From Bacteroidales bacterium (GTDB taxonomy: Bacteria > Bacteroidota > Bacteroidia > Bacteroidales > UBA12077), in NCBI GenBank assembly GCA_028282585.1, contig JANQHR010000139.1, forward strand, positions 1 to 36,866: a stretch of 36,866 nt of DNA, read 5' to 3'. The notes under the pieces are model-generated. The model was not told the origin of the DNA, did not search any database, and saw nothing but the letters and a program-made list of their open reading frames with translations. A program made the translations under genes and the position numbers. This document shows, piece by piece, positions 8,114-27,821 of the stretch (position 1 is the stretch's first letter; each line of letters starts with the position of its first letter).

Positions 8114-9295
8114 TCATAGTTTATAATATTTAAACCTATAGGTCTGTGTTTTGCCAAATGTAAATTCCCAATGAATTTTTATAAGGTTCTTATAGGAGTC
8201 ATTCTCGAAAATTATTTTTGCATCAAAACCATTTTCACCCTTAAAAAAACCTGATTCTAATAAATTATTTTCATCATAATCAAAAGTAATCGTTCCGGTT
8301 AGCCATGTATCAAATCTGGCCCATTCCGCTTCAATCAATTTACCATTTTCATCGTATCGATAAGTTTCACCTCCAAAAAAACCATTTTCAGCATGAAATA
8401 GTCTTCTAACTAATTGTCTATTTTCATTAAATTGATACGAAAATTCTGCTTTCCTCCCATCATTGTATACTCTGAACGATTTCATTAATAAACCTTGATC
8501 ATTGTATTCATAAGTTGTTATGGTTTTTAAACTATCATAATCATATACTTTTCTTACCAACTTATTTCCCTCGTATTCATATTTCGATGGTCCTCCCTCT
8601 TCATTATTCCAATCATAATTTTCCTTTTTAACAATAGATTCTTTCGTTTCCTTCAAAAATGAACTAGAGTATGTAAAACTCTTCGGTATTTCTTTTTCAG
8701 GCCTAAAATACTCATAAGTAAAAGTTTGATTCCATTTGCTACCTAAATCCCAGTATTCTTTAATTAAGTTACCCTGTTCATTGTAAGTGAATTCTATAAA
8801 ACCTATTTCTCTTCCTTCTTTGTAAATAATTCCTTTGATCAGTTTTTCGTCTTTATAGTGATATTTAATATTTCCAAAAAACCATCCGTTTAATCCTCTA
8901 CAATTAGCCTCTATTTTTCTGTTATCTTTATAGCTATACCATACTATTCCTTTTACTCCATCACTGCGTTCAAAGTAATCTTCAATAACGTTTCCCTGTT
9001 TGTTATATTTATAGAAATTATTAGAAGTAATACTATCGGAAAATTCTCTATATTTTCGAGTTATGTTCCCATTTTCATTTAAAAAATGGTAATTAATCGA
9101 ATATCTGCTCCCGTCTTTTAATTCCCATTTTGCCTTATAATTCTTATGGTTTTCACTATAAAATAGTGTTGTTTTACCTTTTTCGCCCGAAGAATTTTCA
9201 TAATAAAGGCATTTTAACAATAAAGTGTCTTTATTAGCGTGTGCGTTTAAGTAAGTTATAAATAACAAACTTATTATTGATATTTTTTCTTTCAT
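8114..9295 (-). CDS. Exported hypothetical protein with YD/RHS-like beta-hairpin repeats and an internal duplication
   Basis: Signal peptide; recurring Y-x-Y-[ND]-x-x-G-x-L units (YKYNKQGNV, FTYNEQGNL, YEYNDQGLL, YRYDENGKL). Confidence 0.65.
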   Translation of the reverse strand: MKEKISIISLLFITYLNAHANKDTLLLKCLYYENSSGEKGKTTLFYSENHKNYKAKWELKDGSRYSINYHFLNENGNITRKYREFSDSITSNNFYKYNKQGNVIEDYFERSDGVKGIVWYSYKDNRKIEANCRGLNGWFFGNIKYHYKDEKLIKGIIYKEGREIGFIEFTYNEQGNLIKEYWDLGSKWNQTFTYEYFRPEKEIPKSFTYSSSFLKETKESIVKKENYDWNNEEGGPSKYEYEGNKLVRKVYDYDSLKTITTYEYNDQGLLMKSFRVYNDGRKAEFSYQFNENRQLVRRLFHAENGFFGGETYRYDENGKLIEAEWARFDTWLTGTITFDYDENNLLESGFFKGENGFDAKIIFENDSYKNLIKIHWEFTFGKTQTYRFKYYKL

Positions 9296-9588
9296 ATCTA
9301 GATTTTTCCCGCAATTTATTCATTTAAGTATTATCTATTAAATTGATTATACAAGCTATATGAAAATTTCTACGAAAGTAAATAACCGTAGTCAAAGCAG
9401 GTTTTCGAAAGCAGCTAATACTAAAAGTTTTTATAATATCACACCCAAGTTCTAATTAGTTTTAAACCATTATGAAAATTGATTATCGCTTTTGCAGCAA
9501 TGAAAGAACGATTACACCAACCCCAAACCATCTTGCACCCCAGAAAGCGGGTTACCATATCTAAGGCTTTGATTTTCTATGCTTAAAT

Positions 9589-9612
9589 AAAAAAACCTGC
9601 GTAAAACACAGG
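9589..9612 (-). terminator. Probable intrinsic terminator of the SnoaL-like gene
   Basis: Minus strand CCTGTG-tttta-CGCAGG followed by T7. Confidence 0.55.
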
Positions 9613-9633
9613 CTAAATTAATATAGATTACTA

Positions 9634-9990
9634 CTATCTTTTAGAGTAAAAATTTTCTCTTATTACAAGATCATCTTCCCATTGTTGTATTGCTACTTCT
9701 TCAATTTTTCTTTTATTTCCATTTTTAAATTTTAATTCAATCCAAAATTCAACCATAGTAATTCTCCTCTCCTCATTTGAAGCAATTGTTCTAACTCCTC
9801 CTCCTATTACTTCCTCAATTTCTCTTAAAAGTTTTTCATCATATTCTTTTGCTTGATGTTTACCATTTCGTTCTGTACCGTCATCAGCAATAATAATTAC
9901 ATCTTCATGGTAATACTTTTCTAAGGCCTCTAATAACTTACCTTCTTCAATCATCTTAAATAACTCTTTTGCTCTTTGATAATAAGTCAT
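9634..9990 (-). CDS. SnoaL/NTF2-like domain protein
   Basis: EALEKYYHEDV…, EEVAIQQWEDDLVIRENFY pattern; start moved to ATG 9990 because the longer ORF-track start lies inside a terminator hairpin. Confidence 0.75.
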   Translation of the reverse strand: MTYYQRAKELFKMIEEGKLLEALEKYYHEDVIIIADDGTERNGKHQAKEYDEKLLREIEEVIGGGVRTIASNEERRITMVEFWIELKFKNGNKRKIEEVAIQQWEDDLVIRENFYSKR

Positions 9991-16456: not shown

Positions 16457-16534
16457 ATGAGTTTACAAAATTTACATACAATTCTTCATCACCATCATCA
16501 TGCTGGTGCATATTACCTATGCAAATTTTTGTAA
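16457..16534 (+). CDS. his operon leader peptide 1 (MSLQNLHTILHHHHHAGAYYLCKFL, 25 aa)
   Basis: Hand-translated; 5 consecutive His codons plus one more; A-rich start; followed by a terminator; upstream of hisG. Confidence 0.88.
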   Translation: MSLQNLHTILHHHHHAGAYYLCKFL

Positions 16535-16563
16535 AATCCTAAAGATAAATTTAAAAAAATAAT

Positions 16564-16591
16564 GGGCTTGCAAAATTTGCAGGCCCTTTTT
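16564..16591 (+). terminator. his attenuator terminator 1
   Basis: GGGCTTGCAA-aat-TTGCAGGCCC-TTTTT; the 3' end of leader 1 (TGCAAATTTTTGTAA) is complementary to TTGCAAAATTTGCA in this hairpin (antiterminator). Confidence 0.85.
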
Positions 16592-16620
16592 CGTATAAAC
16601 AATTTAATAGTTAAAATAAA

Positions 16621-16698
16621 ATGAACTTAAAACAACATCATATTCATCATCATCATTCGAGTTTGAATCAAACCCGGCAGAAAGTACTATGGATATAA
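16621..16698 (+). CDS. his operon leader peptide 2 (MNLKQHHIHHHHSSLNQTRQKVLWI, 25 aa)
   Basis: Hand-translated; 6 His in 7 codons; A-rich start; followed by a second terminator. Confidence 0.88.
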   Translation: MNLKQHHIHHHHSSLNQTRQKVLWI

Positions 16699-16721
16699 AT
16701 TTAAGTTCACTATAAAAAATT

Positions 16722-16753
16722 AAAAGGCCTACAGTTCTCTGCAGGCCTTTTTT
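16722..16753 (+). terminator. his attenuator terminator 2
   Basis: AAAAGGCCT-a-CAG-ttct-CTG-c-AGGCC-TTTTTT, ending 22 nt before the hisG ATG. Confidence 0.85.
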
Positions 16754-16775
16754 ATTTAAAAACACATAATCAATT

Positions 16776-17633
16776 ATGGAAAAACTAAAAATTGCAGTAC
16801 AAAAGTCAGGAAGGTTAAGTGAAAAATCGCTTCAGCTTTTAAAAGAATGCAGTATTAAATTAACGAATGGTAATCGAAAGCTAATTTCAGTATCATCCAA
16901 TTTTCCCATAGAAATACTCTTTTTACGAGATGATGATATTCCGCAATCCATCTATGATAGTGTAGCAGATATCGGAATTGTTGGAGAAAATGAATTCGTT
17001 GAAAAAAATTATCCTCTTAAAATATATAAACGATTAGGATTTGCCAAATGTCGTTTATCTATTGCCATTCCGAAAACAGAAAACTTCGATTCACTTGAGT
17101 ATTTTCAAAATAAGAAAATTGCTACCTCTTATCCATTCATCCTAAAGTCTTTTCTTAAAAAAAATAACATCAATGCGGAAATACACCAAATCAGTGGTTC
17201 GGTTGAAATATCTCCTGGTATTGGGCTGGCCGATGGTATTTTTGATATAGTAAGTTCTGGAAGTACATTGATCAGTAATGGATTAAAAGAAGTAGAAAAA
17301 GTTATGGATTCTGAGGCTGTTTTTATAGGTAACCCTAATATAAAGACTACCAAAAAAGAGATTCTGGAACAGCTTTTATTCAGAATAAATTCGGTTCAGC
17401 AAGCAAATTCCAATAAATATATTCTACTAAATGTTCCCAAAGGTAATCTAGATGAGGTTATTCAAATTATTCCAGGAATGAGAAGTCCAACCATTATGCC
17501 ATTAATTGATGATGAATGGTGCTCATTACATTCGGTAGTTAATGAGCAGGAATTCTGGGAAGTTATTGATCAGCTTAAATCAGCTGGTGCAGAAGGTATC
17601 TTGGTAGCACCTATCGAAAAAATGATCTTGTAA
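16776..17633 (+). CDS. hisG: ATP phosphoribosyltransferase (long form)
   Basis: IAVQKSGRL, RDDDIP, GSVE and DIVSSGSTL motifs plus C-terminal regulatory domain. Confidence 0.97.
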   Translation: MEKLKIAVQKSGRLSEKSLQLLKECSIKLTNGNRKLISVSSNFPIEILFLRDDDIPQSIYDSVADIGIVGENEFVEKNYPLKIYKRLGFAKCRLSIAIPKTENFDSLEYFQNKKIATSYPFILKSFLKKNNINAEIHQISGSVEISPGIGLADGIFDIVSSGSTLISNGLKEVEKVMDSEAVFIGNPNIKTTKKEILEQLLFRINSVQQANSNKYILLNVPKGNLDEVIQIIPGMRSPTIMPLIDDEWCSLHSVVNEQEFWEVIDQLKSAGAEGILVAPIEKMIL

Positions 17634-23156: not shown

Positions 23157-23747
23157 ATGAATTTAGATTTTGCAAAACTAAATGGATTTATTCCAGTTGT
23201 AATTCAAGATGTTAACACTAGGGAGGTTTTAATGCTTGGATTTATGAATGAGGAAGCTTATCAAAAAACAGCAAAAGAAAAACTGGTTACGTTTTACAGC
23301 CGTTCACGCAAAAAATTATGGACAAAAGGAGAAACCAGTGGAAACTTTTTAAAAGTAAATAAAATAATATCGGATTGTGATAGGGATTCTCTTTTAATTC
23401 TGGCTGAACCGACAGGGCCCGTTTGTCATGAGGGAAATAAAGCTTGTTTCAATCTTCAAGATCAAATCTTTGATTTGAACTATTTACAGGAAGTTATTGA
23501 ACAACGTAAAAAAGAAATGCCAAAAGATTCCTATACTACCAGGCTTTTTGAAAAAGGAATCAATAAAATAGCTCAGAAAGTTGGTGAAGAAGTGGTTGAA
23601 TTGATCATAGAAGCAAAAGATAACAATAACGATAATTATTTTTTAAATGAGGCTGCTGATTTGATTTATCATCTTTTAGTTTTACTTTCTGTTAAAAAAT
23701 TTAAAATAAAAGATGTAATCCGACTGTTGGAATCAAGACATAGATAA
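23157..23747 (+). CDS. hisIE: Bifunctional phosphoribosyl-AMP cyclohydrolase / phosphoribosyl-ATP diphosphatase
   Basis: LWTKGETSGN, DCDRD, CHEG…C, KVGEE and EAADLIYH motifs; ATG 23157 (TTG 23151 possible). Confidence 0.95.
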   Translation: MNLDFAKLNGFIPVVIQDVNTREVLMLGFMNEEAYQKTAKEKLVTFYSRSRKKLWTKGETSGNFLKVNKIISDCDRDSLLILAEPTGPVCHEGNKACFNLQDQIFDLNYLQEVIEQRKKEMPKDSYTTRLFEKGINKIAQKVGEEVVELIIEAKDNNNDNYFLNEAADLIYHLLVLLSVKKFKIKDVIRLLESRHR

Positions 23748-23764
23748 ATTAACACTAAATTAGA

Positions 23765-23794
23765 TTTACTTTTTAAAAAGTATTTATATATTTG
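23765..23794 (+). promoter_or_regulatory. Candidate promoter of the aromatic operon leader
   Basis: Perfect -7 element TATATTTG (23787-23794) 16 nt before the leader ATG; weak -33 (TTTA); spacer carries the palindrome TACTTTTTAAAAAGTA. Confidence 0.6.
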
Positions 23795-23810
23795 TCAATA
23801 ACAAACAAAG

Positions 23811-23861
23811 ATGAAAAATAACGCAACTACATATTACTATTACTATTTATTCTTGGAATAA
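23811..23861 (+). CDS. Tyr-rich leader peptide 1 (MKNNATTYYYYYLFLE, 16 aa)
   Basis: Hand-translated; 5 consecutive Tyr codons and one Phe; followed by alternative pairing segments and a terminator. Confidence 0.88.
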   Translation: MKNNATTYYYYYLFLE

Positions 23862-23894
23862 AGCAGGGGAGTAATATTGTTGTATAAAATACTT

Positions 23895-23923
23895 AAAGGT
23901 CCTGCTTAAACAGGACCTTTTTT
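23895..23923 (+). terminator. Aromatic operon attenuator terminator 1
   Basis: AAAGGTCCTG-cttaaa-CAGGACC-TTTTTT; AAGCAGG at the leader stop pairs with CCTGCTT of the 5' arm and loop (antiterminator). Confidence 0.88.
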
Positions 23924-23935
23924 ATTGAAATAAGT

Positions 23936-23995
23936 ATGATCAGGTTTACTTCACATTATTATTACTTCTATTACAGATACAAGTTGTATCCCTGA
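23936..23995 (+). CDS. Tyr/Phe-rich leader peptide 2 (MIRFTSHYYYFYYRYKLYP, 19 aa)
   Basis: Hand-translated; 7 Tyr and 2 Phe in 19 codons; starts 12 nt after terminator 1. Confidence 0.88.
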   Translation: MIRFTSHYYYFYYRYKLYP

Positions 23996-24031
23996 AAAGC
24001 TATGTCCATAAATTAAAATCATCAAATAATC

Positions 24032-24066
24032 AAAAAGCGTCTCAGGGAATCCTAAGGCGCTTTTTT
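24032..24066 (+). terminator. Aromatic operon attenuator terminator 2
   Basis: AAAAAGCGTCT-c-AGG-gaat-CCT-a-AGGCGC-TTTTTT; TCCCTGA…GCT spanning the leader 2 stop pairs with AGC…TCAGGGA (antiterminator). Confidence 0.85.
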
Positions 24067-24086
24067 AATTTTTAAAAACTTAAACA

Positions 24087-25259
24087 ATGAAACCAGCAAA
24101 ACGAATCCAAAACATCCAAGAGTACTACTTCTCCAAAAAGTTAACGGAAATAAGAAAAATGCAACAGCAAGGAATTGATGTAATCAATCTGGGAATAGGA
24201 AGCCCAGATCTTCCTCCACACCCGGATGTAATTTATGAATTAAACAAAAGCAGTCAATCTACTGATAGCAACATGTACCAATCGTATCGAGGAATTGATG
24301 AATTAAGAACTGCTATTGGCAACTGGTATCAAAAAATTTACCACGTTTACCTGGATACAAATACAGAAGTATTACCTCTAATGGGATCAAAAGAGGGAAT
24401 TATGCATATCTCTATGGCCTTTTGTGACCCAGGTGACCAAGTGCTTCTGCCTAATCCAGGCTATCCCGCCTACACGCTTGTTTCTAAACTATTAAATCTT
24501 GATATCCAATATTATAATCTTAACGAGCAAAACAATTGGTTACCTAGTCTTAATGAGTTAGAATCAATTAGTAACGATCGATGTAAAATGATATGGATAA
24601 ACTATCCGCATATGCCTACAGGTAAAGTTGCCGATGCAGGTACACTCAGGGAGCTTGTTATGTGGGCAAAATACAGAGATATTCTCGTTATAAACGATAA
24701 TCCTTATAGTTTAATATTAAATAAAAACCCTTTAAGTATTCTTTCAAATCTAAAAGATTATAAGCATGTTCTTGAATTGAATTCTTTGAGCAAATCTTAC
24801 AATATGGCCGGATGGCGAATTGGTATGGTAGGTGGTTCAAAAGAGAATATTAATCATATCTTAAAAATTAAAAGCAATTTTGATTCTGGTATGTATAAAG
24901 CAATTCAGATGGCAGCTGCTAAAGCTCTTAATTTAGGAAGTGATTGGATATTTGAATTAAATAATGAATATGAAAAAAGAAGAGAAATAATTTGGTATAT
25001 ACTGGACACTTTAAACTGTATTTATCAAAAGGAAACCAGTGGATTATTTGTATGGGCAAAAATTCCAGGAACTTTTAATAATTCATTTGAATTCTCTGAT
25101 TACTTACTTCATACACTTTGTTTATTTGCCACTCCAGGAAGTATCTTCGGAAATAATGGTAATCAATATATTCGATTTTCACTTTGTGCCAATCAAAAAA
25201 CGCTCCTGAAAGCTTTAAACCGAGTTAAAACTTTTAAAGAACAAACCATATGCGAATAA
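24087..25259 (+). CDS. Class I/II PLP-dependent aminotransferase (probable aromatic/prephenate aminotransferase by context)
   Basis: NLGIGSPD, GSKEG, NYPHMPTG, DNPY and SLSKSYNMAGWRIG (PLP Lys) motifs. Confidence 0.88.
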   Translation: MKPAKRIQNIQEYYFSKKLTEIRKMQQQGIDVINLGIGSPDLPPHPDVIYELNKSSQSTDSNMYQSYRGIDELRTAIGNWYQKIYHVYLDTNTEVLPLMGSKEGIMHISMAFCDPGDQVLLPNPGYPAYTLVSKLLNLDIQYYNLNEQNNWLPSLNELESISNDRCKMIWINYPHMPTGKVADAGTLRELVMWAKYRDILVINDNPYSLILNKNPLSILSNLKDYKHVLELNSLSKSYNMAGWRIGMVGGSKENINHILKIKSNFDSGMYKAIQMAAAKALNLGSDWIFELNNEYEKRREIIWYILDTLNCIYQKETSGLFVWAKIPGTFNNSFEFSDYLLHTLCLFATPGSIFGNNGNQYIRFSLCANQKTLLKALNRVKTFKEQTICE

Positions 25260-26086
25260 CTATAGTGGGTCTAGGTTTAATTGGTGGTTCCATGGCCATT
25301 GATCTTCGAAAAAGAGGTTTTGCATCTCATATTATTGGAGTTGATTCTAATAAACTTCATGCAAAAACGGCACTTAATATTGGTTTAATTGATCAAGTTA
25401 GTAATCTTGAAGATGCTATTTCTGAAACTGAATTAATTATCCTTGCAATTCCTGCGAATGAAACCATCCGGTTGTTACCAAAAGTGCTTGATAAAGTCAA
25501 AAACCAAATCGTAACAGATGTATGTTCCATCAAGGCAAATGTCTGTGAGCGAATAAAATACCATTCCAATCGTTTAAATTTCGTTGCATCGCATCCCATG
25601 GCTGGTACAGAAAACTCTGGGCCGTGGTCTGCAGAATCTGGATTATACGATGGGAAAGCAGTAATCTTTTGTGATGCTGAAGATAGCAATCCGCAAGCGC
25701 TAAATGTTGTGACGAAAATGTATGACTACTTAAACATGCGGCCCATTTATATGAACGCATATAATCATGATGTACATGTAGCTTATGTTTCACACATTTC
25801 ACATATCAGTTCATTTGCATTGGCTTTAACGGTTCTGGATAAGGAAAAAAATGAAAAAAATATTTTTGATCTTGCCAGTGGAGGATTTGATTCAACTGTG
25901 CGATTAGCAAAAAGTTCAGCCGAGATGTGGTCAACTATTTTTGAAAACAACTCGGAGAATGTAATCTCTGTTTTAGATACATATATTGAAAAATTAAAGG
26001 AATTTAAATTGGCTATTCAAAAAAACGAAAATGGCCAAGTATCTGATTTAATTAATAAAGCAAACCGAATTAAAAAGATATTGTAA
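25250..26086 (+). CDS. tyrA: Prephenate dehydrogenase
   Basis: GLGLIGGS, DVCSIK, HPMAGTE, HD…AYVSHISH and RLAKSSAEMW motifs. Confidence 0.93.
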   Translation: MRITIVGLGLIGGSMAIDLRKRGFASHIIGVDSNKLHAKTALNIGLIDQVSNLEDAISETELIILAIPANETIRLLPKVLDKVKNQIVTDVCSIKANVCERIKYHSNRLNFVASHPMAGTENSGPWSAESGLYDGKAVIFCDAEDSNPQALNVVTKMYDYLNMRPIYMNAYNHDVHVAYVSHISHISSFALALTVLDKEKNEKNIFDLASGGFDSTVRLAKSSAEMWSTIFENNSENVISVLDTYIEKLKEFKLAIQKNENGQVSDLINKANRIKKIL

Positions 26087-26087
26087 A

Positions 26088-27182
26088 ATGAAAACAAATT
26101 TAAATTTAAACTTAAAAAATATATTTGACTGGAGTATCATTCAAGAGGATAAACCAATTATCATTTCTGGCCCTTGCAGCGCAGAAACCGAAGAACAAAC
26201 TATTCAAACAGCAATTGCACTTAGAAAATTCGGAATTAAAATATTTCGAGCCGGAATCTGGAAACCACGCACTCGCCCTAACTCATTCGAAGGTGTTGGA
26301 AGTATAGCTTTAGAATGGTTAAAAACAGTTAAAAGTGAAACCGGAATGTTTCTTGCTACAGAAGTGGCTAATGTCAAACATATTTATGAATCGTTAAAAG
26401 CAGGTATTGATATTCTTTGGATAGGTGCTCGAACTACAGCTAACCCTTTTGCAATTCAGGAGATTGCTGAAGCATTAAAAGGCATAGACATTCCCATTTT
26501 AATTAAAAATCCTGTAAATCCGGATGTTAACTTATGGATTGGTGCAATAGAAAGGTTTTATAAAACTGGTATAACAAAAATTGGTGCAATTCATAGAGGA
26601 TTTTCGACTTACGAAAAAAGCATTTATAGAAACATCCCACAGTGGCAAATTCCGGTTGAACTGAAAACAAGAATACCGGAAATTCCGCTTTTATGCGATC
26701 CTAGCCATATATCCGGAAATAGGCAGTTATTAAAAGACATATCTCAAAAGGCTATTGATCTCAATTTTGATGGGCTTATGATAGAAACTCATCCTTCTCC
26801 TGATAAAGCCTGGAGCGATGCAAAGCAGCAAATAACTCCCAATTCACTTAAGCATATGATTGATAACTTAGTTATCAGAGAAGAACTTCCTAAAGGTATT
26901 TCATTAGATACTATCGAAGATCTTAGATATAGAATTGATCAATGTGATGATGAATTATTAAATATTCTTGAGAAAAGAATGAATCTAGTTCATTCAATTG
27001 GAATCTATAAAAAGGAAAATAAAATGACTATATTACAGCCGGGACGCTGGGAAAATGTAATTGGTAAGAGTATTGAAAGAGGATTAAAAAAGAATCTAAA
27101 CAAAGATTTTATATCCAATATTTTTAAGTCTATTCATCAGGAATCTATAAATAAACAAAATAAGATTATGAACAATAGGTAA
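26088..27182 (+). CDS. Bifunctional DAHP synthase (type I-beta) / chorismate mutase (C-terminal AroQ)
   Basis: GPCSAE, WKPRTRP.SFEG, WIGART and DPSH motifs; C-terminal LRYRIDQCD…KRM…K…Q..RW. Confidence 0.93.
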   Translation: MKTNLNLNLKNIFDWSIIQEDKPIIISGPCSAETEEQTIQTAIALRKFGIKIFRAGIWKPRTRPNSFEGVGSIALEWLKTVKSETGMFLATEVANVKHIYESLKAGIDILWIGARTTANPFAIQEIAEALKGIDIPILIKNPVNPDVNLWIGAIERFYKTGITKIGAIHRGFSTYEKSIYRNIPQWQIPVELKTRIPEIPLLCDPSHISGNRQLLKDISQKAIDLNFDGLMIETHPSPDKAWSDAKQQITPNSLKHMIDNLVIREELPKGISLDTIEDLRYRIDQCDDELLNILEKRMNLVHSIGIYKKENKMTILQPGRWENVIGKSIERGLKKNLNKDFISNIFKSIHQESINKQNKIMNNR

Positions 27183-27242
27183 AACTATTTGAAGTTAATC
27201 ATTAGTATGATAATTTTATTTCATAAACCTAAAAAATTAAAC

Positions 27243-27821
27243 ATGAAAAAAACAGTTTTACTAGTTTTAGCATTTTTCCTTGCTATTACTATTATAAAAG
27301 CACAAGAAGGAGAAAAGAAAGAGCTTAAACCAGCACTTTTGGTAATTGATGTTCAAAATGCCTATATTAATTGGATGGATCAATCGAATAAGGATATAGC
27401 ATTTGAATATATAAATGCTCTAATTAATCTGTTTGAAAAATATGATCTTCCAATAATTAATGTATATCATCAGGATAAAAACTGGGGACCTTCCGAAGAT
27501 TCAGAAGAATTCAAGTTTGCTCCTGAGATCAAAATAGAAGATGAATATCCAAGAGTAGTAAAAAATTATGGAAATGCATTTACAAAAACCAATTTAGATA
27601 AGATTTTAAATGAAAAGGAAGTTAACACCCTATTTCTGTGTGGATTAAGTGCAACAGGTTGCGTTCTGTCTACCTATGTAGGTGCTAACGATCATGATTA
27701 TAAAGTATTTTTGATCGAAAATGCTTTGTTAAGTCCAGATGCAGAGCATACAGGTATTATTGAGCAAATCAAGAATTCGATATCGTATGAAACTCTTTCT
27801 TTTATGTTAGAATATTTATAA
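27243..27821 (+). CDS. Isochorismatase-family cysteine hydrolase with N-terminal signal peptide
   Basis: LLVIDVQ, K…NAF and GLSATGCV (Asp-Lys-Cys triad); start set at ATG 27243 (MKKTVLL…KA/QE). Confidence 0.85.
   Translation: MKKTVLLVLAFFLAITIIKAQEGEKKELKPALLVIDVQNAYINWMDQSNKDIAFEYINALINLFEKYDLPIINVYHQDKNWGPSEDSEEFKFAPEIKIEDEYPRVVKNYGNAFTKTNLDKILNEKEVNTLFLCGLSATGCVLSTYVGANDHDYKVFLIENALLSPDAEHTGIIEQIKNSISYETLSFMLEYL

Follow-up and report, generated by a model that had tools for sequence, protein, structure and literature searches.

The 36,866 nucleotides (nt) of contig JANQHR010000139.1 in assembly GCA_028282585.1, from a Bacteroidales bacterium of the lineage UBA12077, are referred to here as the window. 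On its forward (+) strand, a 300-nt leader (23787-24086) stands ahead of an operon for an aminotransferase, the prephenate dehydrogenase gene tyrA, and a fusion of DAHP synthase with chorismate mutase. We read this leader, with a probability of roughly 0.8, as two classical ribosome-mediated transcription attenuators in series behind one promoter, sensing mainly Tyr-tRNA; that they are working attenuators is a somewhat safer statement than that Tyr is their main signal. A preliminary description had proposed such a tandem of ribosome-mediated attenuators from the letters of the sequence, and every in silico test that we ran, covering conservation, pairings, promoter motif, and gene content, agrees with that proposal. 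Four features of sequence and structure by which an attenuator is recognized are present: a cluster of codons for the amino acid that the operon makes, an intrinsic terminator ahead of the structural genes, an antiterminator at the stop codon, and a protector that includes the regulatory codons.

Anatomy of the leader

All of the leader elements lie on the + strand. A promoter-like -7 element, TATATTTG, is read from the sequence at 23787-23794 and is of the TAnnTTTG type of Bacteroidota, which we take to be the promoter consensus of Bacteroides and Flavobacterium. The first leader open reading frame (ORF 1, 23811-23861) is MKNNATTYYYYYLFLE plus a stop, 16 codons and TAA, with its regulatory Tyr codons at 23832-23846 and one Phe codon at 23850-23852. 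In the minimum-energy fold, the protector (anti-antiterminator) helix of unit 1 spans 23823-23885, with 23823-23838 pairing to 23870-23884, and its 5' strand overlaps the first Tyr codons. The antiterminator, identified by a duplex test, joins AAGCAGG(GG) at 23861-23869, a strand that begins inside the stop codon, to CCTGCTT at 23901-23907, which belongs to the 5' arm of terminator 1. That terminator has a 10-bp stem (23895-23904 with 23911-23920), a 6-nt loop, and a T run reaching 23923.

Only 12 nt separate the T run of terminator 1 from ORF 2, where a second complete unit begins. ORF 2 (23936-23995) is MIRFTSHYYYFYYRYKLYP plus a stop, 19 codons and TGA, with Tyr codons at 23957-23965, 23969-23974, 23978-23980, and 23987-23989 and Phe codons at 23945-23947 and 23966-23968. 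The unit 2 protector is a hairpin, GATACA-AGT-TGTATC (23976-23990), that forms when the ribosome footprint is masked in the fold, and its 3' arm shares 2 nt with the antiterminator strand. The antiterminator spans 23989-24048 and pairs (T)CCCTGA at the stop codon, together with GCT at 24000-24002, to AGC...TCAGGG(A) at 24036-24048, the 5' arm of terminator 2. Terminator 2 is an interrupted stem of 14 pairs (24032-24060) with a GAAU loop, followed by T6 (24061-24066), and 20 bases remain from there to the ATG of the aminotransferase at 24087. The -7 box, both ORFs, both terminators, and this ATG are all where the preliminary description had located them. Tyr codons make up 5 of the 16 codons of ORF 1 and 7 of the 19 of ORF 2, and the codon runs of the two leaders together hold 12 Tyr versus 2 Phe, with one further Phe early in ORF 2.

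Folding, pairing, and chance

Unit 1 (23800-23930) folds at -30.2 kcal/mol (z = -4.75) and unit 2 (23931-24075) at -25.7 kcal/mol (z = -2.92); for each of them, none of 200 dinucleotide shuffles is as good. The minimum-energy fold of unit 1 consists of the protector, pairing GCAAC/ATATTACT with AGTAATAT/GUUGU, and the terminator. RNAfold gives terminator 2 as a stem of 11 + 3 pairs followed by T6. A simple consensus terminator scanner lists terminator 1 on the + strand and does not list terminator 2, with its interrupted stem, for which it has only a short inner hairpin on the - strand.

The antiterminator duplex of unit 1 scores -11.4 kcal/mol (z = -3.07, p = 0.007 against 300 shuffles), with its strand starting at +1 relative to the stop codon, and that of unit 2 scores -14.5 kcal/mol (z = -4.52, p = 0.003, again 300 shuffles), with its strand starting at -3. 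Of 41 units examined in this way, 34 show better pairing of the terminator's 5' arm with the RNA downstream of the aromatic codons than 300 shuffles give (p ≤ 0.05). The upstream strand of the antiterminator has its onset within or just after the stop codon in unit 1 and among the final codons of the ORF in unit 2.

Chance was gauged on ATG-initiated ORFs of 8-40 amino acids from both strands of the 4.9-Mb genome to which the window belongs. Just 4 of 59,265 contain at least 5 Tyr within 7 residues; 2 of the 4 are the neighboring ORFs described here, and one of the other 2 is the antisense of an Asn-codon run. The tandem Tyr ORFs exceed chance.

No Rfam family reaches its gathering threshold anywhere in the window. 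A permissive Rfam scan of 23700-24150 yields 32 sub-threshold matches, none near its family threshold, which we treat as chance. Among them, the proteobacterial Phe_leader model (RF01859) gives the two units 20.3 and 15.6 bits, where its gathering threshold is 55, and Thr_leader (RF00506) scores 14.8 bits, also against 55; a T-box is found neither at the gathering threshold in the window nor among the 32 matches.

Conservation in relatives

The family of the assembly comprises 56 species genomes, 20 of which have the aminotransferase; in another sample of relatives, tyrA was present in 20 of 41 genomes. To find units we use a rule, with no typed-in sequences, that calls a short ORF dense in aromatic residues over part of its length when a hairpin and T run come after it. 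Counting the window, 22 family loci have usable upstream DNA; 19 of them have two in-frame units in series and 3 have one. One further locus (L113, genome G039) is excluded from the 22 because its contig ends in a repeat array: the 260 nt upstream of its aminotransferase hold, at the contig end, tandem repeats of about 20-30 nt instead of a leader. Most relatives have pheA (prephenate dehydratase) as the gene nearest the leader, with the same aminotransferase and tyrA after it, and both Tyr and Phe occur in their leaders.

The ATG, frame, and stop of the leader ORFs are conserved, and third codon positions vary. Outside of the aromatic run the peptides also vary, with the RNA helices being kept. 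The short variant of ORF 2 seen in the window occurs in L129 as well. Since the aromatic runs are conserved in frame between ATG and stop, they are not free-floating TAY microsatellites, an alternative that the preliminary description had raised. Of 28 loci, 18 have a TAnnTTTG motif ahead of the first leader ATG, at a distance of 16-54 nt (mostly 24-27 nt). Between a T run and the ATG that follows it there are mostly 12-23 nt, with extremes of 3, 8, and 76 nt. The preliminary description had also considered a separate transcription start between the two units. In 22 inter-unit intervals there is not one TAnnTTTG, which speaks against such a start as far as the motif goes.

As a control, 80 homologous aminotransferase loci from across the bacteria were taken from a species-wide search with the aminotransferase. 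These are mostly distant, the best being 49% identical, and L001-L004 are the useful ones: units within 2 kb upstream are found only at the 4 nearest loci, all in Bacteroidota (Pseudotenacibaculum, Tenacibaculum, and two metagenome-assembled genomes [MAGs], one of Bacteroidales with two units and one of Flavobacteriales with three). At the remaining 76, no unit lies within 2 kb upstream. Scanning metagenomes with tyrA adds 80 loci, of which 29 are without upstream DNA and 33 have at least one unit.

Covariation of the helices

Covariation among homologous leaders, the check proposed in the preliminary description, supports the terminator and protector helices, and the antiterminators more weakly. 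Alignments of unit 1 (15 copies) and unit 2 (14 copies) were scored for pairs on structures taken from one relative. For the unit 1 protector and terminator together, 84.4% of the cells are paired versus at most 56.9% when the partner strand is slid, and 11 pairs are changed on both sides versus 6.0 ± 1.3 in shuffles, a count reached by 1 of 500 shuffles. Counted by itself, the protector shows two-sided change at 7 of its 11 aligned pairs in the 15 sequences, and the terminator 1 helix has 90.3% of cells paired with 4 of 12 pairs compensatory. The unit 2 terminator is 90.9% paired, with 3 of 11 pairs changed on both sides (8 of 500 shuffles reach this), and the GATACA/TGTATC protector of unit 2 is 79% paired versus at most 60.5% slid, with 3 of 6 pairs changed on both sides, one of them being CG in 7 sequences and UA in 5.

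For the antiterminators, unit 1 is 84.3% paired versus at most 47.7% slid, with 3 of 8 pairs changed on both sides (matched by 21 of 500 shuffles), and unit 2 is 78.6% paired versus at most 49.1% slid, with 2 of 13 pairs changed on both sides (116 of 500 shuffles). Part of the weakness of the unit 2 count comes from the window and L129, whose pairing is shifted by one column. By eye, CCCGGGA pairs with TCCCGGG in relatives versus CCCTGA with TCAGGG in the window, and the 3' arm of terminator 2 in the window carries matching changes; thus one arm is kept complementary to two partners. All three pairings that had been suggested for unit 1, and both of those suggested for unit 2 (TCCCTGA/TCAGGGA and GATACA/TGTATC), recur in the relatives with compensatory changes.

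Leader codons and operon content

The genome of the window appears to have lost pheA. A tblastn search with the pheA of a relative finds no match in the assembly, and PF00800, the Pfam prephenate dehydratase family, is not found in this 98.35% complete genome and is present in 14 of 14 control genomes. Prephenate dehydratase is likewise not found in G007 (96% complete) and G069 (90% complete), and all three genomes keep tyrA. With pheA lost and the runs holding 12 Tyr to 2 Phe, the signal is therefore read as mainly Tyr, and the emphasis that the preliminary description had put on Tyr fits this gene content, the leaders of the window being the most Tyr-rich of the family. The organism probably needs external phenylalanine, judging from the genes found. 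In the family at large, 36 of the 56 genomes have no match to the operon's aminotransferase; aromatic amino-acid auxotrophy seems, from such gene content, to be common there.

The Tyr:Phe ratio in the runs is 12:2 in the window, 14:4 in G007, and 5:15 in a sister genus, and relatives within the genus that have pheA carry 7-13 Tyr to 7-10 Phe. Where pheA stands alone, in G019 and G042, it has a Phe-rich single leader of its own (Tyr:Phe 1:5 and 2:5). Metagenome operons without pheA include cases of 12:2 (two units), 5:1, 6:0, and 8:2. G069 has a 120-nt spacer (L121, 1376-1500) separating the aminotransferase from terminator 2, and this spacer ends with 31 of 35 bases of the 3' end of a relative's pheA, a scar marking that the gene was lost recently; the leaders of G069 remain mixed, with 10 Tyr and 7 Phe.

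We compared codon content over 56 distinct loci, after removing identical leader sets. The Tyr fraction has a median of 0.60 (0.50-1.0; n = 15) in operons with tyrA and without pheA, and of 0.50 (0.17-0.67; n = 38) in those with both, and ranges from 0 to 0.29 (n = 3) where pheA is present without tyrA, one of these three having three Phe-only leaders. It is 0.78 or more in 7 of the 15 pheA-less operons, one at 6:0, and no pheA operon is above 0.67. One-sided Mann-Whitney tests of codon against operon content, with kinship ignored, give p = 1.2 × 10−4 and 0.006. Across the 56 loci, then, the Tyr and Phe content of the leaders looks consistent in direction with the content of the operons, with exceptions that are real.

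Kinship was brought in with a tree of tyrA (51 rows; L130-L134 and L167 are left out, their loci covering too little of tyrA). On it the pheA state changes at least 9 times, 4 of these changes being forced by supported branches. On average, the 4 supported contrasts give 2.3 in the expected way, 0 in the opposite way, and 1.7 with no difference. The nearest tyrA row to the window, L120 at 83% identity, has pheA and a Tyr:Phe ratio of 7:9 versus the 12:2 of the window.

Two observations stand beside this comparison. The Flavobacteriales MAG locus L004 has three serial Phe-only units (0 Tyr, 19 Phe) from 436 to 149 nt upstream of pheA, in a pheA-aminotransferase-DAHP synthase/chorismate mutase operon without tyrA that is the mirror image of the window. 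And G007 (L129, 1000-1320) shares with the window both the pheA-less layout and the short variant of unit 2 (window 23936-24066; the ORF ends in Tyr-Pro, with CCCTGA/TCAGGG); nonetheless, its tyrA groups with genomes bearing pheA, and the DNA of its unit 1 and aminotransferase is 87% and 85% identical to L105 and only 68% to the window. We set aside a single origin of the pheA-less layout in a common ancestor of the window and G007, which neither the tyrA tree nor these DNA identities fit simply; recombination, old polymorphism, and convergence are the candidates for the likeness.

Proposed mechanism

In each unit, a ribosome would translate the short ORF with its central run of Tyr codons. 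When Tyr-tRNA is charged, the ribosome would reach the stop codon and cover the antiterminator strand, the G+C-rich terminator hairpin would form, and RNA polymerase would halt at the T run. When charged Tyr-tRNA is scarce, the ribosome would stall on the Tyr run and open the protector, freeing the antiterminator strand, which would capture the terminator's 5' arm while the 3' arm is still to be transcribed, so that transcription continues. A ribosome stalled on the first Tyr codons would reach about 12-15 nt downstream. If the leader is left untranslated, the protector helix would hold the antiterminator strand and termination would follow. Both units must be read through, and therefore the probabilities of escape multiply; by analogy with tandem riboswitches, the pair should hold basal expression lower, and make the response steeper, than a single unit would. 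What the analysis shows directly is the anatomy of the leader, how well it is conserved, the covarying helices, and the agreement of leader codons with the genes of the operon; stalling, kinetic competition, and the benefit of having two units are what we infer from this arrangement.

A division of labor in which one unit senses Tyr and the other Phe was considered and is rejected on the similar Tyr:Phe mixes in both units of the genus relatives.

Weighing the interpretation

Several results count against tandem Tyr attenuation. The antiterminator duplex is not significant in 7 of the 41 units, of which at least 2 are artefacts of cutting the segment after the last aromatic codon, and the covariation of the antiterminators is weak, as the shuffles given above show for unit 1 (3 of 8 pairs) and unit 2 (2 of 13). 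Equilibrium folds with a masked ribosome footprint keep the terminator in nearly all units, including both in the window; the switch would therefore have to be kinetic, with the antiterminator forming first, and kinetic switching is usual for attenuators of the leader-peptide class. Among the 51 metagenome loci with upstream DNA, 18 show no unit by our rule. The link between codons and gene content is not significant once kinship is respected, with just 4 independent contrasts on supported branches, a number with which the kinship-aware test is underpowered and cannot reach significance. The pheA-less operons of G069, G019, and G042 keep mixed leaders, with Tyr fractions of 0.56-0.60. Finally, the aroR leader of Corynebacterium glutamicum, which contains Phe-Tyr-Phe, responds to Phe and not to Tyr (Neshat et al. 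2014, in the account given in passages of PMC11802643), and a Tyr codon is therefore, as far as that account goes, no guarantee of Tyr sensing.

The last two points are what would be expected if the units were real attenuators whose read-through depended mostly on Phe, or on how fast ribosomes move in general, with a small part for the Tyr codons and the leader serving as a general sensor of aromatic supply or translation stress. The insensitivity of aroR to Tyr, as told in PMC11802643, the two Phe codons in the runs of the window with the one early in ORF 2, and the three pheA-less lineages with mixed leaders all lean that way. We nevertheless regard it as unlikely: the runs have 12 Tyr to those 2 Phe, control of the Tyr pathway by Phe would be of little purpose in a genome where no pheA is found, and the concentration of Tyr fractions at 0.78 or above in 7 of 15 pheA-less operons, one of them 6:0, with none above 0.67 where pheA is present, also speaks against it. 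One may also suppose that only one unit regulates, terminator 1 mainly ending the his operon and unit 1 being a relic or spacer. The gene upstream of the leader is indeed hisIE, the last of its operon, with its stop at 23747; the stretch from there to the aromatic leader (23748-23810) holds no hairpin, and hisIE is also the upstream neighbor in L105, L109, and L110. This is quite improbable, in that the whole of unit 1 is conserved at loci with other upstream neighbors (L106, L108, L111, L115, and L129), unit 1 has the strongest covariation, and the promoter motif sits between hisIE and ORF 1; doubling as the his terminator would in any case be compatible with regulation.

Attenuation independent of translation, in which a protein or an uncharged tRNA binds the leader RNA in the manner of TRAP or a T-box and the ORFs are incidental, has nothing specific in its favor. 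Bacteroidota do without Shine-Dalgarno-led initiation, so the translation of such short ORFs is not readable from sequence. The mechanism is very improbable, given that no T-box or other Rfam family reaches threshold in the window, that ATG, frame, and stop are conserved with third codon positions varying, and that codon content tracks operon content, which is explicable only by a mechanism that reads codons. Scarcely credible, at the far end, is the idea of no regulator at all, with simple TAY repeats lying beside ordinary hairpins or small Tyr-rich peptides having a function of their own. A+T-rich DNA does make TAT/TAC runs easier to obtain by chance; such ORFs are nevertheless rare (the 4 in 59,265), the units are always upstream of pheA or tyrA operons, with none at the 76 of 76 non-Bacteroidota and more distant loci, and it is the RNA helices that are kept and the peptides outside of the aromatic run that vary. 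Two serial ribosome-mediated attenuators reading mainly Tyr remain our preferred interpretation.

The operon and other leaders in the genome

Behind the leader, all on the + strand, are a class I/II aminotransferase by Pfam (24087-25259); tyrA (25250-26086), matching NCBIfam NF006307 at 342 bits with a cut-off of 295; the fusion of DAHP synthase and chorismate mutase (26088-27182); and an isochorismatase-family ORF (27189-27821) that begins 6 nt after the fusion gene. On the upstream side, transcripts of the his operon may also end at terminator 1; when Tyr is limiting, they could instead continue into the tyrA operon.

The tandem layout of leaders is found in the same genome at the his and asnA operons also. 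The his operon (hisG at 16776) is likewise preceded on the + strand by two serial units, at 16457-16754 of the window: a leader ORF at 16457-16534 (MSLQNLHTILHHHHHAGAYYLCKFL) followed by a hairpin at 16564-16586 and a T run, and a leader ORF at 16621-16698 (MNLKQHHIHHHHSSLNQTRQKVLWI) followed by a hairpin at 16722-16753. The Rfam His_leader family has no match at threshold to them. For leaders elsewhere in the genome we used an intergenic scan with 32 matches, a first genome-wide scan with 287 matches having been set aside as too noisy because it included coding DNA. On the minus strand of contig C98, at about 430-710, two serial Asn-rich leader ORFs, with 5 Asn in 7 residues each, have their own terminators and a TATATTTG-like motif upstream; behind them comes an AsnA-like (aspartate-ammonia ligase) ORF, cut off by the end of the contig. 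We know of no Asn-specific leader peptide attenuator. On the minus strand of contig C16, at about 9570-9816, a Trp leader, composed of a WW-containing ORF and a terminator, precedes a TrpB-like gene (8367-9563); a second WW ORF follows with no clear terminator.

Comparison with known systems

Textbook attenuation covers Trp, Phe, His, Leu, Thr, and Ile/Val. In Escherichia coli, pheL-pheA and trpL-trp are the textbook leader-peptide attenuators, and the tyrosine genes are under the TyrR repressor. The units of the window are like pheL and trpL in having a run of end-product codons, alternative protector, antiterminator, and terminator pairings, a stop codon by the antiterminator strand, and an intrinsic terminator; they differ in having Tyr codons, two complete units in series, and a Bacteroidota host, and, with the 20.3 and 15.6 bits mentioned above against 55, they fall outside of the Rfam Phe_leader family at the sequence level. 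Tandem riboswitches and tandem T-boxes are also serial attenuators for one signal that give a sharper response and a lower basal level. In those the RNA senses the ligand or tRNA directly, whereas the sensor in the window would be the translating ribosome. The two ORFs of the Salmonella mgtCBR leader sense different signals. Attenuators in Bacteroidetes/Chlorobi were reportedly predicted by Vitreschak et al. in 2004, and that work may already list pheA leaders.

The C. glutamicum aroR-aroF leader, the single leader containing Tyr whose description our search turned up, resembles the one in the window as a mixed Phe/Tyr leader peptide before a DAHP synthase operon. It differs, on the description in passages of PMC11802643, in being a single unit with one Tyr codon, where the window has two units, with runs of 5 and 7 Tyr codons, ahead of tyrA and its operon. 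Like the window, the Salmonella mgtCBR leader has two short ORFs, each controlling a structure that decides on transcription into the coding region; according to PMC3641672 those ORFs are expected to act on different structures, and the units of the window have the same kind of codon and an intrinsic terminator each. Closer to our organism, the transcriptome of Flavobacterium psychrophilum gave clues for leader-peptide attenuation before amino-acid operons, and the 5' elements before its pheA and hisG are conserved in Flavobacteriaceae with no Rfam match, as set out in main-text passages of PMC9723704. Those elements are probably of the same kind as the units described here; the same passages make no mention of Tyr specificity, a tandem layout, or a link between codons and operons for them. 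The word 'Bacteroid' is absent from the main text of Naville and Gautheret 2010 (PMC2965389). Our literature search, with most subscription journals outside of its reach, found no long Tyr runs before tyrA or Tyr-specific leader peptides, no tandem same-signal leader peptides in Bacteroidota, and no leader codons tracking operon content; for tandem attenuators it yielded the Salmonella mgtCBR work and synthetic circuits. The kind of attenuator is known, and the Tyr-run tandem before tyrA appears to be new as a variant within the literature searched.

Significance

We lean, by a small measure, toward a broader view in which leader-peptide attenuators arranged in series, with one to three copies per leader, form a general and evolvable control design in this branch of Bacteroidota, their codons being retuned quickly with operon content: toward Tyr once pheA has been lost, to Phe alone in operons that lack tyrA, and to Phe-rich on a stand-alone pheA. 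The attenuator of the window would then be essentially Tyr-specific, and the asnA leaders Asn-specific.

If true, a Tyr-specific leader would have a specificity that has been shown experimentally for no leader peptide in the literature searched, and a long, conserved Tyr-run leader before tyrA would fill a gap in the attenuation repertoire. It would also supply a compact natural part for sensing the charging of Tyr-tRNA. The relatives, with one, two, or three copies, would form a natural series for how serial attenuators set basal level and steepness, and the shift of codons with the gain or loss of pheA and tyrA would be a rare case in which the specificity of a regulator can be read from sequence and its evolution traced.

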